Shown here one piece after another: positions 3,113 to 7,041 of a stretch of 7,041 bases of DNA. The stretch lies in IMG/VR virus record IMGVR_UViG_2690316109_000023; one strand, written 5' to 3'. The stretch is from a virus. Lineage: Duplodnaviria; Heunggongvirae; Uroviricota; Caudoviricetes. The notes beneath the pieces were generated by a model that worked only from the letters and a program-made list of their open reading frames with translations, was not told the origin of the DNA and searched no databases. Every line of letters starts with the position of its first letter. Position 1 is the stretch's first letter. Position numbers and translations under genes: made by a program.

Positions 3113-3552
3113 TGCCGTGGCAACCATTAAGACGATGCACAGAACCAGGCTGTAACAGGCGCGTGAAGTCCGGCAAGTGTGAGGAGCACAGGCGGGCGGC
3201 ATGGCGTGCAGAGGATGCCAGACGAGGACACCGCCGCGCGCGTGGGTACTCCAGACAGTGGGAAAAATACCGCGCCATGTATCTGAGTAAAAACCCGTTA
3301 TGCGTGCGATGCCTTGAGAAGGGGATATATACGCCCGCCGTGGTGGTGGATCACATTATCCCGATTAATGGCGGTGATGATGTTCTCTTCTGGCCCGAAT
3401 GGAACCATCAGCCATTGTGCCAGGCGTGTCATAACCAGAAAACGAAGTGGCTTGATCCGGCAACAAAAAGCAAGCGTGCCGCTGGCGGATTCCGTGAGGA
3501 GGAAGAACGGGCCGCTAACCGCAATAACTGGATGTATGACGCTGATGAATGA
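3112..3552 (+). CDS. HNH endonuclease (terminase-associated)
   Basis: Cysteine pairs CTEPGC and CVRC, plus VVDHIIP and NHQPLCQACHNQKT, form an HNH/zinc-finger motif set. Located immediately upstream of terS/terL as in HNH-cos packaging systems. Confidence 0.88.
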   Translation: MPWQPLRRCTEPGCNRRVKSGKCEEHRRAAWRAEDARRGHRRARGYSRQWEKYRAMYLSKNPLCVRCLEKGIYTPAVVVDHIIPINGGDDVLFWPEWNHQPLCQACHNQKTKWLDPATKSKRAAGGFREEEERAANRNNWMYDADE

Positions 3553-3718
3553 GCGGGAACAAAACCGCCTTATCCGTGGACTTATAAGGCAGCGTGACGC
3601 ATGGAAGACACAGGAAACAGGGCATAAAGATAAAGCGTCAGGACGCGCAGAACGCATCACAGCGAAGCGATTAACCGACCGTGACCGCGAGGTTATGGAA
3701 TGTTTCCGCAATCGCTGA
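3545..3718 (+). CDS. Hypothetical small basic protein (57 aa)
   Basis: ORF MNEREQNRLIRGLIRQRDAWK... starts at an ATG overlapping the HNH stop (ATGAATGA), suggesting translational coupling. An in-frame ATG at 3536 is an alternative start. No recognisable domain. Confidence 0.35.
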   Translation: MNEREQNRLIRGLIRQRDAWKTQETGHKDKASGRAERITAKRLTDRDREVMECFRNR

Positions 3719-3842
3719 TGAGGCTGTATGACGGGGTGGGGGGGCGTTTTCAGGACAAACCCGACCCCGCCGGGCACCGAACGCCTCCTCAAATTTTTAT
3801 GCACGGGAATTTTTTGAAAAATAATCTGGCGAAAAAATAAGC
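3719..3842. other. Intergenic region between the HNH-side genes and terS; candidate cos/packaging site
   Basis: G-rich ACGGGGTGGGGGGG (3731-3744) and C-rich CCCGACCCCGCC (3760-3771) form an imperfect inverted repeat (CGGGGTGGGG vs reverse complement CGGGGTCGGG) around an 18-bp spacer, followed by AT-rich DNA. Its position matches where cos lies in HK97-type HNH-dependent systems. Confidence 0.25.
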
Positions 3843-4199
3843 ATGGCAAGACCACCGAAAGCCCCCGCCTACCTGGATGATATCGCCGTGAAGCAGTGGC
3901 GGGAAAAATCGCGGCAGCTTGCGGAACGGGGAGACCTTACCCCCGCCGACTGGAGTAATCTGGAACTGTATTGCGTCAATTACTCGATATACCGGAAAGC
4001 CGTCGCAGACCTTGCGGCACGCGGGTTCAGCATTGTTAACAGTCAGGGCGGCGAGAGCAGAAACCCCGCATTAAGCGCAAAATCCGACGCTGAAAGAGTG
4101 ATGATAAAAATGGCCTCCTTGCTCGGTTTTGACCCGGTAAGCCGCCGTAAAAATCCACCGGAAACAGAAGAAGAGGACGAGCTTGACCGCCTGGAATAA
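3843..4199 (+). CDS. Terminase small subunit (P27 family-like)
   Basis: 118-aa ORF starting MARPPKAPAYLD with an acidic C-terminal tail (ETEEEDELDRLE), immediately upstream of and overlapping the large terminase. Confidence 0.8.
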   Translation: MARPPKAPAYLDDIAVKQWREKSRQLAERGDLTPADWSNLELYCVNYSIYRKAVADLAARGFSIVNSQGGESRNPALSAKSDAERVMIKMASLLGFDPVSRRKNPPETEEEDELDRLE

Positions 4200-5857: not shown

Positions 5858-6139
5858 ATGACAGAAGCCGAAATAACGGGATTAATCCGCCGCGTTGCCG
5901 GAATCAGCCAGCAGGCTGACGAACAGGCCACGCAGCCGGACAGCGTGACAGCCGAAAACTATGCGCGTGTTGTTGCTGAGGTGATGCGCCGTGATGGTAT
6001 AGAACTTAATGGCGTGGATATGCGCAACATACGAACCAGAGTTCTTGAGTTGCTGGCCTACCGTCGCCGCGTGGAGATGTATCGGGAGAAGGAGAAAATA
6101 ACGTACCACTGGAAGAAGCCGGAGCGGTTGCGGCGGTAA
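5858..6139 (+). CDS. Hypothetical protein (93 aa), last gene of the module
   Basis: ATG 5858 with GAGG 8 nt upstream, 13 nt after the terL stop. Charged, arginine-rich C-terminus. No recognisable domain. Confidence 0.5.
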   Translation: MTEAEITGLIRRVAGISQQADEQATQPDSVTAENYARVVAEVMRRDGIELNGVDMRNIRTRVLELLAYRRRVEMYREKEKITYHWKKPERLRR

Positions 6140-6289
6140 CTGGTTGATATTCCCGACGGACCAAAAATGGGTGGCTACATCCCTCGCTTCTGAGGACTGT
6201 TAACAAGCTGCCTGAAAGACAGTCACAAACTACGAAATTTTCGCAGTTTAATTAATGATCAGCTTAATCGCTAACCCGCAGATATTTTC

Positions 6290-6700
6290 GGAAACCTCAA
6301 TTTGAGGAAGTCGGCGCGGTAACTCGCTGAACTTTAAGCAAAGCGCAAAATTGCGCTTGCTGAATAATCATTATGATTACGCAGATGATTAAGGAATGAC
6401 CGAAGGCGGAAATTCGCCTGTGGTTAATGGGGGAGTTGCAGATCTGCAACTCGACCATGAAACTACGGAAACTACCCGTAGTTTGGGTAGTAAGAGTAAC
6501 ACCCAGATTTTGGGTCTTACTCGTGATACCCAAATTTGGGGTATCAGTGGCAACCATAACGACTTTCGTTACGGTTGATGCTTTTACCCCATTGGGGGAA
6601 AGGTATTACGATAATCATAACACCTACCGAACAGGTAAAGCCCACCAGCCTGATTAACGTTTAACCGGAAAAAAATTCCGGTAGGTGGGGATCCCCATAT
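6290..6700. other. Hairpin/palindrome-dense non-coding region
   Basis: At least ten dyad elements in ~400 bp: 6295-6307, 6341-6358, 6405-6418, 6433-6452 (perfect 20-mer), 6463-6491, 6494-6522, 6525-6545, 6551-6577, 6587-6597, 6664-6682, 6686-6697 (perfect 12-mer). ORFs in this region are rich in rare codons and lack RBSs. Confidence 0.6.
6433..6452. promoter_or_regulatory. Perfect 20-bp palindrome GAGTTGCAGATCTGCAACTC; candidate dimeric-protein binding site
   Basis: Exact reverse-complement symmetry over 20 bp, verified base by base. Confidence 0.4.
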
Positions 6701-6808
6701 CGACATTAACGCCCCTCATGAATTGGTGCGCTTCCCCCTGGAAAGATGATCCGCCTGTATATTTCTTGTGTCTATTTGTTCCACGTTGTTTCATACAGTG
6801 CACCGAAC

Positions 6809-6832
6809 GGTGTAGTCACTGGTGTAGTCATT
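6809..6832 (+). repeat. Tandem 12-bp direct repeat GGTGTAGTCACT / GGTGTAGTCATT; candidate recombinase arm-type or regulator binding sites
   Basis: 11/12 identical adjacent repeats about 75-95 bp inside the putative element end. Confidence 0.4.
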
Positions 6833-6876
6833 TTGCGATTTTTGGCACTTTTTGTGGTGCAAATTATTTAATTAAA

Positions 6877-7041
6877 TCAATTAGTTAGGTTAAATAAGTT
6901 ATATATAACAGCAATAAATAATGCGAGAATAAACGGCACGATGATCTCGGCGGCAAAACGGATACCGCAGAGAATAATGACCAGCATTCCCAACATAATG
7001 ACGATTTTTAGGCCATTGAGCGTGATGATCGGCTTTGCCAT
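6877..7041 (-). pseudogene. tqsA: 5' fragment of an AI-2E family transporter gene (tqsA/ydgG-like): about 45 native codons, then 9 foreign codons and a stop
   Basis: Minus-strand ATG at 7039-7041 translates to [45 protein letters not shown], then IYNLFNLTN and stop (TGA complement at 6877-6879). The hydrophobic N-terminus matches my recollection of E. coli TqsA. Sequence becomes AT-rich and non-coding exactly where the match ends (~6906). Confidence 0.55.

Follow-up and report, generated by a model that had tools for sequence, protein, structure and literature searches.

Repetitive extragenic palindromic (REP) sequences and the bacterial interspersed mosaic elements (BIMEs) have established roles in the stabilisation of mRNA 3' ends and in attenuation. 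Here we describe an array of palindromic units at the right end of an E. coli satellite island, contained in the 7,041-nucleotide IMG/VR record IMGVR_UViG_2690316109_000023 (Caudoviricetes; this whole stretch is called the window below, position 1 being its first letter), and tentatively read this array, including two adjacent hairpins (A and B) within it, as a co-transcribed structured 3' tail of the packaging operon that would act as RNA in the manner of REP/BIME sequences. The window covers the right end of a phage-inducible chromosomal island of the capsid-forming type (cf-PICI, which makes its own capsid), ~15 kb long and inserted in E. coli tqsA. The island type is already known, cf-PICIs and Rpp PICIs having both been described (bioRxiv 10.1101/2022.09.08.507074; PMC6739421). 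Work on PICIs and cf-PICIs is almost wholly protein-centred, the 0.3-0.9 kb from the last packaging gene to the right attachment site (attR) is drawn empty, and the PICI literature that we searched offered no description of the non-coding array or of the 123-bp module (M1) in which hairpins A and B reside.

This supposedly empty interval is among the most structured sequence of the island. When we scanned the entire 7-kb window for folding in sliding segments of 150 nt, z scores of -6 or below were confined to ~6350-6750 and reached their extreme, -9.1, at 6401-6550. The region concerned (6137-6700, ~600 bases) is free of open reading frames (ORFs), lies between ORF93, the final gene of the packaging operon, and attR, and is extremely structured on both strands (z ~-10; for 6300-6720, -10.1 on the plus and -11.9 on the minus strand), with ~15 consecutive hairpins predicted at 6177-6682 and no credible gene between the ORF93 stop codon (6139) and the attR side (~6800). 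The whole region is present in 1,326 of 5,426 complete E. coli genomes. Its parts, including sites matching the consensus of integration host factor (IHF), are the following.

6137-6176, plus strand: Box2 unit, TAACTGGTTGATATTCCCGACGG and then a weak hairpin, ACC-AAAAATG-GGT, at 6160-6172; a weak match (20 bits) to the covariance model of the array units.
6137-6149, minus strand: IHF core within this Box2 unit, TATCAACCAGTTA, a perfect match to the core consensus.
6177-6249, plus strand: two hairpins, at 6177-6200 and at 6227-6249 (ACTACGAAATTTTCGCAGT), the latter recurrent in many islands.
6272-6321, plus strand: Box1 unit in canonical form, TAACCCGCAGATATTTTCGGAAA and next a triloop hairpin of 5 bp, CCTCA-ATT-TGAGG (6295-6307), with AAGTCGGCGCGG after it; covariance model score 59.9 bits, E 2.5e-13.
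6320-6362, plus strand: Box2 copy in degenerate form, TAACTCGCTGAACTTTAAGCA, with a hairpin of 10 bp after it at 6337-6361, AGCAAAGCGCA-AAAT-TGCGCTTGCT.
6362-6426, plus strand: palindrome TAATCATTATGATTA (6365-6379) and a 12-bp hairpin (6397-6426), ACCGAAGGCGG-AAAT-TCGCCTGTGGT.
6428-6550, plus strand: module M1, 123 bp, four stem-loops.
6494-6522, plus strand: hairpin A, GAGTAAC-ACCCA / GATTT / TGGGT-C-TTACTC; 11 bp with one C6500xC6516 mismatch and a 5-nt loop.
6524-6546, plus strand: hairpin B, GATACCC / AAATTTG / GGGTATC; 7 bp at 6525-6545, with T6524-A6546 as an eighth pair, and a 7-nt loop.
6551-6601, plus strand: two hairpins past M1, at 6551-6577 (CAACCATAACG-ACTTT-CGTTACGGTTG, with an A-C mismatch) and at 6583-6601 (TTTACCCC-ATT-GGGGGAAA).
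6621-6697, plus strand: distal structured part, with 9-bp long-range arms CACCTACCG and CGGTAGGTG at 6621-6629 and 6679-6687.
6642-6649, minus strand: Chi site within the distal part.
6664-6682, plus strand: distal hairpin, ACCGGAA-AAAAA-TTCCGGT.
6688-6697, plus strand: distal palindrome, GGGGATCCCC.

Hairpins A and B, which the original prediction had singled out as a near-identical pair, are present as it described and fold beyond chance: as RNA, hairpin A reaches -12.7 kcal/mol (z -3.5; 1 of 200 shuffles as good), hairpin B -10.6 kcal/mol (z -3.1; 3 of 200) and the two together (6494-6546) -25.2 kcal/mol (z -5.5), a value that none of 200 dinucleotide shuffles attained, and DNA folding parameters return the same stems. 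Their close resemblance through a shared ACCCA-(A/G)ATTT-TGGGGT holds for this island only, since in most relatives the centre of hairpin A reads CACCC-AGATTTT-GGGGC and hairpin B TACCC-AAATAAA-GGGTA, which reduces the likeness to ACCC...GGG. Duplication is not supported; A and B are, in most relatives, two of four different stem-loops of M1 rather than mutual copies, and instead of forming an isolated pair they are its third and fourth stem-loops within a larger structured tract. The first two are H1 (6433-6452, GAGTTGCAGATCTGCAACTC, with a lower stem of 6427-6430 and 6455-6458) and H2 (6460-6484).

Comparison of 31-43 distinct M1 variants separates the two hairpins. The closing pair of hairpin B covaries (C-G in 22, U-A in 5 and U-G in 3), an A-T pair of its stem is replaced by C-G in the related loci L049 and L157 with A/G intermediates among the variants, and the loop drifts (AAATTTG, AAATAAA, AAATATA, ATATTTT) while the stem is retained. 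Hairpin A shows one-sided changes only and no compensatory pair: of 31 variants, 11 have G-U at its outermost pair, G88-C116, and nine have a C-A mismatch at its fourth pair, T91-A113. The homologue L174 is divergent (~73% identity, an identity band that comprises 38 genomes); in it the inner stem of hairpin A is gone and hairpin B and H1 persist. On these grounds hairpin B is well supported as a selected structure by its compensatory changes, and hairpin A is therefore backed mainly by thermodynamics and sequence conservation. A competing fold exists, in which a 33-nt imperfect inverted repeat centred on the loop of hairpin A (6473-6505 / 6511-6543) forms an extended hairpin A that pairs GGGTA at 6485-6489 with TACCC at 6527-6531 and so would abolish hairpin B; it is the thermodynamic optimum in this island, and the covariation supports hairpin B over it. 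H1 covaries as well, the substitutions in its lower stem following the path G-C, G-U, A-U. The idea of a repeated stem-loop, or RNA structural module, was therefore right in spirit, with conservation in hundreds of genomes, compensatory changes in hairpin B and covarying surroundings.

Searches of the complete E. coli genomes identified M1 as the most widely shared part of the region: it occurs in 706 of the 5,426 genomes (~13%), mostly at 90-100% identity, at a median of one and a maximum of six places per genome and always inside satellite islands, and also in 67 IMG/VR loci and 67 metagenome contigs. M1 folds with z -6.8 on the plus and -8.2 on the minus strand, and islands that share only 80-85% identity in the adjacent ORF93 DNA still agree at 90-94% in M1. 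Its hosts belong to at least three PICI types, namely cf-PICIs from two capsid lineages, Rpp/DUF1441 PICIs hijacking lambda-like terminases, and a lambda-cos Rpp PICI without ORF93; they differ in integrase, AlpA and partly primase, and all encode their own single-stranded DNA-binding protein (SSB) and a primase-helicase. Phage and plasmid collections yielded no homologue outside E. coli chromosomal islands, and the array as a whole is restricted to the E. coli/Shigella lineage.

Conservation of the motif across otherwise syntenic island ends is mixed, as it is kept in many relatives and absent from L004, L103, many of L075-L103, many Box-containing loci and the Klebsiella islands L073 and L074. 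In Klebsiella cf-PICIs, a packaged genome among them, the ORF93 homologue is followed only by a simple terminator and integrase arm repeats. Islands that lack it show M1 to be dispensable. In place of M1, L004 (4520-4700) and L103 hold four GTGAC repeats with an exact 10-bp period, a small hairpin and a true intrinsic terminator (GGATGACGTGGCCAACGTCATTTTTT), which together perhaps form a swappable module of another kind. M1 is missing from some islands and present twice in others; in a number of the latter (L020 at 1060-1500, L010, L032, L049, L106 and L127), two copies ~435 bp apart flank an origin-like cassette of three TTGCGGGTTA repeats, an AT-rich spacer and three TAACCCGC repeats in opposite orientation, whose iteron core TAACCCG is also the start of Box1. 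One M1-bearing element, L173 (NZ_CP148328.1), was deposited as the 10,790-bp circular 'plasmid' pZ1323HEC0475-3 and is a complete Rpp-type PICI (int ... DUF1441, ORF93, M1), an excised or episomal satellite in which 557 bp separate M1, across the junction, from int downstream of it.

The grammar of the array around M1 was derived by comparing ~100 islands. Its unit consists of a conserved ~24-nt box, [C/G]TAAC[C/T]NNYTGATWTTYYCGRWA, and a short hairpin ~20 nt after the box start, whose stem varies (CCTCA/TGAGG, CAGCC/GGCTG, CCCCC/GGGGG, CCTGC/GCAGG, TCGCC/GGCGA, ACGCA/TGCGT, GTGCA/TGCAC, GCCCA/TGGGT). When 30 distinct Box1 units were aligned (with CCUCA, CAGCC, CCCCC, CCUGC, UCGCC and ACUCA among the stems), all five hairpin pairs varied on both sides and 96.7% of cells were paired, giving a covariation score of 0.516, a value that none of 500 shuffles attained (shuffle score 0.187); shifting the partner by one column lowered pairing to ~50%. 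A covariance model built from these units retrieved 71 units at E <= 2e-6 from 42 sources, always on the operon strand, with no match in the Klebsiella islands. The window holds one canonical unit (6272-6321) and two of Box2 type (6137-6176 and the degenerate 6320-6362), and the L004 variant of the hairpin at 6583-6601, TTTTCCGCC-ATT-GGTGGAAAA, still pairs. There are 2-8 units per island, their number and order differing between otherwise similar islands; the unit with the 6397-6426 hairpin, for instance, sits downstream of M1 elsewhere, so units change order between islands. Because each unit echoes the 3' end of ORF93 (AAGCCGGAGCGG...GGTAAC to AAGTCGGCGCGGTAAC), the arrays appear to have grown by duplication of the operon end, and L009 carries an exact tandem duplication of a 130-bp unit. 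In L101 and L102 (minus strand, ~12400-12720 and ~7330-7450) Box1-hairpin units occur in a different element that lacks ORF93, beside TACCCCCAAA arm-like repeats and GGTTCAGTT iterons, so the repeat family is not limited to one satellite lineage.

In the box, the invariant columns (T1 A2 A3 ... T9 G10 A11 T12, and W at 13) coincide exactly with the positions that the complement of the IHF core, YAANNNNTTGATW, specifies; 20 of the 30 distinct units match this complement perfectly and the other 10 with one mismatch; the window contains two perfect IHF-consensus matches where 0.23 are expected, one of them in Box2 at 6137-6149.

Several traits of the region bear on its transcription. The array begins at the ORF93 stop, with no convincing terminator or promoter between; all loci examined, which number more than 36, have their boxes and M1 in the same orientation as ORF93; ~210 nt past M1, the structured tract of the commonest island type finishes with a stem and a following T-run (ATCGATTTTTT); and the Klebsiella relatives carry a plain intrinsic terminator at the same place, as expected if the array were an elaborated operon 3' end. 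Mismatch types lean towards the plus strand as well, with 36 G-U cells against 10 A-C in M1 and 33 against 5 in the box units, and among 55 units the plus-strand fold is the more stable in 37 and the minus-strand fold in 18. Finally, the array is optional, variable in copy number and lineage-restricted, as REP/BIME arrays are. The start at the ORF93 stop, the co-orientation, the terminator in relatives, the T-run stem, the conserved pairing and the wobble lean together suggest a transcribed 3' untranslated region (UTR) that acts as RNA; we infer both the folded RNA molecule and an effect of its folding. RNA polymerase leaving ORF93 would transcribe directly into the array, and the nascent sense RNA would fold as a chain of stable stem-loops that could stop 3'-to-5' exonucleases, and thereby stabilise the upstream packaging mRNA, and could keep Rho and RNase E off the untranslated RNA. 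The array might also shield the island from transcription across attR, or across the phage-type attachment site (attP) in the excised circle, and the box that precedes many of the hairpins may double as an IHF site on the DNA.

A number of observations weigh against this operon-tail reading. Minus-strand folding is as strong as plus-strand folding (z -11.9 versus -10.1), and the plus-strand wobble excess is modest, so that the strand assignment is not robust: without the doubtful pair of columns 17 and 43 the bias falls to 10 versus 5 overall and 3 versus 2 in the inner hairpin, and independent substitution events in M1 number only ~7 versus 4. L174, with its inner hairpin A stem lost, folds better on the minus strand. 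The conservation of M1, loops included and above that of ORF93, points to specific recognition or recent recombinational spread and not to a generic exonuclease block, and the coincidence of the box with the specified IHF positions looks like a DNA-level signal. No clear terminator precedes attR in the window's own island type, and covariation in a palindrome can arise without selection, through template-switch 'correction' between its arms.

A first rival is an element that acts at the DNA level, a reading that we regard as unlikely. Here the boxes would be IHF sites, and the palindromes would work as single-stranded DNA hairpins, in lagging-strand priming of the G4 or primosome-assembly type or as a fork or recombination signal, or within an IHF-bent nucleoprotein structure close to the end of the island. 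The agreement of the invariant box columns with the IHF core (20 of 30 units perfect, 10 with one mismatch), the two perfect matches in the window against 0.23 expected, and the equal folding on both strands and with DNA parameters speak for it, as do the SSB and primase-helicase of all M1-bearing islands and the geometry of replication, in which the plus strand is the lagging-strand template for a rightward fork from the island origin (L001 7494-7736); by analogy, four adjacent conserved hairpins in ~120 nt resemble G4-type origins and the f1 intergenic region. However, 5-bp stems with 3-nt loops are too short for extrusion from duplex DNA, an optional array of 2-8 units in shifting order is unlike an essential replication signal, the array is ~8.5 kb from the origin and has no TGTTCACC iterons, and the Klebsiella cf-PICIs manage without it.

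Slightly more doubtful, in our estimate, are selfish or neutral palindromic mini-repeats restricted to satellites, which would have spread by tandem duplication of the ORF93 3' end with its box and by box recombination, been perfected by template switching and perhaps been kept as capsid-length filler, leaving hairpins A and B with no dedicated function. The exact tandem duplication in L009 and the copy of the ORF93 3' end in each unit are what such a history predicts; unit order and number vary, M1 is duplicated or absent among islands, the inner hairpins show no clear mismatch-type strand bias, hairpin A has decayed in L174, and relatives without an array are complete, packaged elements. Set against this, M1 outconserves its neighbouring gene and is retained in three island types with different packaging, z ~-10 over 500 nt far exceeds a duplication effect, many unrelated stems follow the same box at the same offset, and the repeats, at a median of one place per genome, are not chromosome-dispersed. 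For the last reason they are probably not active miniature inverted-repeat transposable elements (MITEs). Filled and empty sites exist (window versus L085 and L078), and M1 holds the 33-nt imperfect inverted repeat; comparison of the window with L085 and L009 revealed no target-site duplication at the M1 junctions (...GATTAAGG^AATGACC and CAGTGG^CAACC).

A bolder version of the RNA reading, which we think rather improbable, treats M1 as a functional RNA specific to satellites, passed horizontally between unrelated PICI types of E. coli, which, cut from the operon 3' tail or acting within it, engages a helper-phage or host factor (pairing of H1 with lambdoid KilA-N mRNAs and titration of an RNA-binding protein being two examples), with the box-hairpin units as a new class of RNA/IHF repeat. 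Still a shade less probable is its narrower form, an M1-derived regulatory RNA, either a 3'-UTR small RNA (sRNA) or a protein-binding decoy directed at helper phage or host, for which A and B would serve as scaffold; a satellite-encoded sRNA against a helper reportedly exists in SviR of the Vibrio cholerae phage-inducible chromosomal island-like element (PLE). Sequence conservation in M1 is high both in loops and in stems, an operon 3' UTR is the typical position of 3'-derived sRNAs, the common island type has a T-run after the structured tract, and the H1 palindrome is identical as well as complementary to a segment of lambdoid KilA-N genes, but there is no Rfam match and no predicted promoter, hairpin B has no following U-run, many islands lack M1, and the KilA-N match (E ~1-5) is perhaps due to chance and was accompanied by no other phage complementarity. 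In the phage complementarity search, this 20-21-nt match of H1 was the only one. It concerns the palindrome GAGTTGCAGAT(C/T)TGCAACTC(G) (window 6433-6453; L014 5503-5522; L104 608-628), which equals the codons for SELQICNS in KilA-N domain genes that SfII, Stx2a phages and other lambdoid phages carry, and, because H1 is palindromic, it is also perfectly complementary to them. Nor was an entry for Sp7 or with matching Sakai coordinates found in the parts of the enterohaemorrhagic E. coli (EHEC) sRNA catalogue of Tree et al. 2014 that were accessible.

The proposal that A and B, together with an upstream CTACCC-GTAGTTT-GGGTAG, are tandem operators (TACCC-N7-GGGTA, 26-27 bp apart) for a dimeric DNA-binding protein is barely credible, for although three (T/C)ACCC-N7-GGGT(A/C) dyads with nearly invariant cores start at 6474, 6501 and 6527, the middle one is asymmetric (CACCC...GGGGC) in most relatives, the palindromes are far longer than 17 bp (29 nt in hairpin A), the outer pairs of hairpin B covary, which operators do not need, the presence of M1 follows no particular DNA-binding protein (its host islands differ in integrase, AlpA and primase type) and no promoter is predicted nearby. 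More generally, a sequence-specific dimeric protein is unlikely because the neighbouring hairpins stay paired while their sequence changes completely. The suggestion in the original prediction of paired binding sites, or of operator or origin repeats, thus found no footing: M1 accompanies different integrases, AlpA proteins, primases and packaging systems, the origin lies beside the primase gene, and the likely cos is between HNH and terS.

According to Pfam matches the island encodes, in order, int, alpA, a P4-like primase, SSB, an HK97-type capsid protein, protease, portal, head-completion genes, HNH, terS, terL and the 93-aa ORF, and the array is flanked by the following features.

5858-6139, plus strand: ORF93, final packaging-operon gene; 93 aa, helical, of unknown function (phrog_1561), its stop codon within the first box of the array.
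6809-6887, no strand assigned: attR side, outside the hairpin array; a direct repeat of two GGTGTAGTCA copies at 6809-6830, presumed integrase arm sites, and a perfect IHF consensus, AATCAATTAGTTA, at 6875-6887.
6877-7041, minus strand: 5' fragment of tqsA, at the attR junction.

In O26:H11 11368, ORF93 is annotated as hypothetical. In an exhaustive search the family proved narrow (36 representatives at 50% clustering), a scan of genome contigs yielded one locus and a protein search only near-identical E. coli proteins, and deep phylogenetic covariation is therefore out of reach. The use of the ORF93 fold as a pointer to an RNA- or DNA-binding partner was dropped, because its AlphaFold2 (AF2) model is of low confidence (predicted local distance difference test, pLDDT, 63.5) and too poor for a fold search.

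The array is neither cos, nor replication origin, nor att site. A lambda-type cos (cosQ-cosN-cosB), as found upstream of rpp in EcCICFT073 (cos1; sequences from the supplement of PMC6739421), is excluded since cosN, GGGCGGCGACCT, is absent from the window. Such a cos lies upstream of rpp in L036, with M1 downstream of cos-rpp. M1 accompanies either packaging type and can face either way with respect to cos, which is a separate element adjoining rpp or ORF93. In L076, L078, L081 and L097 an inverted lambda-type cos (cosQ and cosN GGGCGGCGACCT, like cos2 of EcCICFT073) is located ~30-100 bp upstream of ORF93 on the opposite strand; because the inverted cos is directly upstream of ORF93 in islands of the L076 type, ORF93 and the array fall on its cosQ side. 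For cf-PICIs, the gap between HNH and terS, which is rich in G, is the most likely cos. This candidate (window 3552-3843, especially ~3720-3800) comprises a G-rich tract, GACGGGGTGGGGGGGCG...CCCGACCCCGCCGGGC, and then an A/T-rich stretch; RefSeq annotates a frameshifted small ORF there, and the linear record of a packaged Klebsiella relative, vB_KppS-Ant (LR881103), begins 22 nt before terS.

A replication origin, or P4-like cis replication region (crr), is likewise excluded, as 6137-6880 contains no TGTTCACC iterons. The island origin is upstream of the window, with at least nine phage P4 type-I iterons, (C)TGTTCACC, in both orientations at L001 7494-7736 (O26:H11 11368), directly 3' of the P4-alpha-like primase-helicase gene, where TAACCCG does not cluster. 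An attP arm was rejected too, since M1 is found with integrases that are 22-99% identical and at tqsA, fis-, clpS- and tRNA-adjacent sites, and the presumed arm repeats are separate, at 6809-6830.

Further candidates fared no better. Hairpins A and B are not Rho-independent terminators, being followed by GTGATACC and GTGGCAAC, respectively, without a U-tract, and a terminator scan gave three weak terminator-like sites against 1.7 expected. A small protein or type I toxin was rejected because the sole ORF through M1 (ATG 6457) ends after 26 codons in most relatives; its ATG is lost in L013 and it has no Shine-Dalgarno sequence. In the window we detected no Rfam match at E <= 1, no tRNA or tmRNA (ARAGORN) and no predicted promoter above background. 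Chi enrichment was rejected as an explanation, because the island is rich in Chi throughout and its right end is not special in this respect: sites (GCTGGTGG) have an unusually high density, with 14 in ~15 kb, nine sharing one orientation. Those of the window are at 816, 944, 1948 and 5472 on the plus and at 2393, 2692 and 6642 on the minus strand. Most islands with the other tail type have a Chi site exactly at the 5' edge of M1 (TTGGCTGGTGGGTGAG).

The grammar of an IHF-like box followed by a covarying hairpin recurs in islands that differ in integrase, primase and packaging strategy. The element is frequent in pathogenic E. coli, although its origin may be non-adaptive. Should the array act as RNA, satellite-helper biology gains a post-transcriptional layer, and the array becomes relevant to engineered PICI delivery vehicles, in which cargo and markers are often placed at this end; if M1 in particular is a functional RNA, Gram-negative PICIs would have their first described non-coding RNA system, whether it acts in cis or in trans. 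A DNA element would imply an unrecognised IHF-dependent step, and filler a clear case of genome padding by cos-packaged satellites.

Several described systems resemble the array in part. Phage operator arrays and the R-sites of cosB likewise have tandem short dyads at approximately two to three helical turns near IHF sites, but the true cos elements of these islands are elsewhere, and M1 is present with both packaging types. G4-type origins and the f1 intergenic region also have adjacent conserved hairpins in ~120-500 nt of non-coding DNA (with IHF sites in f1), and their signals act on SSB-coated single strands while the island encodes SSB and primase; only the architecture is suggestive; PICIs are double-stranded and cos-packaged and the array is far from the origin and dispensable in relatives. 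The lambda sib element resembles the array as a structured RNA near attP, at the prophage end opposite int, where gene relations differ between the integrated and the excised state, and in the excised PICI circle the array comes to lie a few hundred bp upstream of int (M1 to int 557 bp). However, sib consists of one RNase III hairpin, carried by the int transcript downstream of that gene, whereas the PICI array would lie upstream of int, because int is transcribed away from the left attachment site (attL), and apart from the extended hairpin A no stem of RNase III length (>=20 bp) was seen in the array. Also comparable are the Correia elements of Neisseria and the enterobacterial repetitive intergenic consensus (ERIC) sequences, or intergenic repeat units (IRUs), modules of ~100-150 bp built on a long imperfect inverted repeat (33-nt arms in M1), co-transcribed into mRNA ends, some with IHF sites, and present or absent at otherwise identical loci; M1, in contrast, is not dispersed, shows no terminal inverted repeats with target-site duplication at its edges and, by eye, has no similarity to the ERIC consensus.

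The nearest relatives are REP/BIME sequences, including their IHF-associated forms, the reiterative ihf BIMEs (RIB) and repetitive IHF-binding palindromic elements (RIP). With these the array shares short palindromic units in mosaic arrays at the 3' ends of transcription units, an IHF consensus site, a strain-variable copy number, lineage restriction, a non-essential nature and mRNA hairpins; like them, it has palindromic units at an operon 3' end together with an IHF consensus site, to which IHF binding is predicted. It is nonetheless not a member, because both the defining sequence and the distribution fail to agree. By eye, no REP consensus palindrome (~35 nt, of the GCCGGATG... type, GTAG/CGTC-tagged) was found in 6137-6700 or in 100 related loci, and the array occurs in satellites only, at about one copy per genome, whereas REP sequences number hundreds per chromosome. 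Its units are all co-oriented where those of REP/BIME alternate, it has no associated REP-associated tyrosine transposase (RAYT), and its box-hairpin grammar and 123-bp M1 are without a REP counterpart. Judged from its sequence, the array is therefore best regarded as a probable new, satellite-restricted variant among the extragenic palindromic and IHF-associated elements of operon ends, outside the REP/BIME family.

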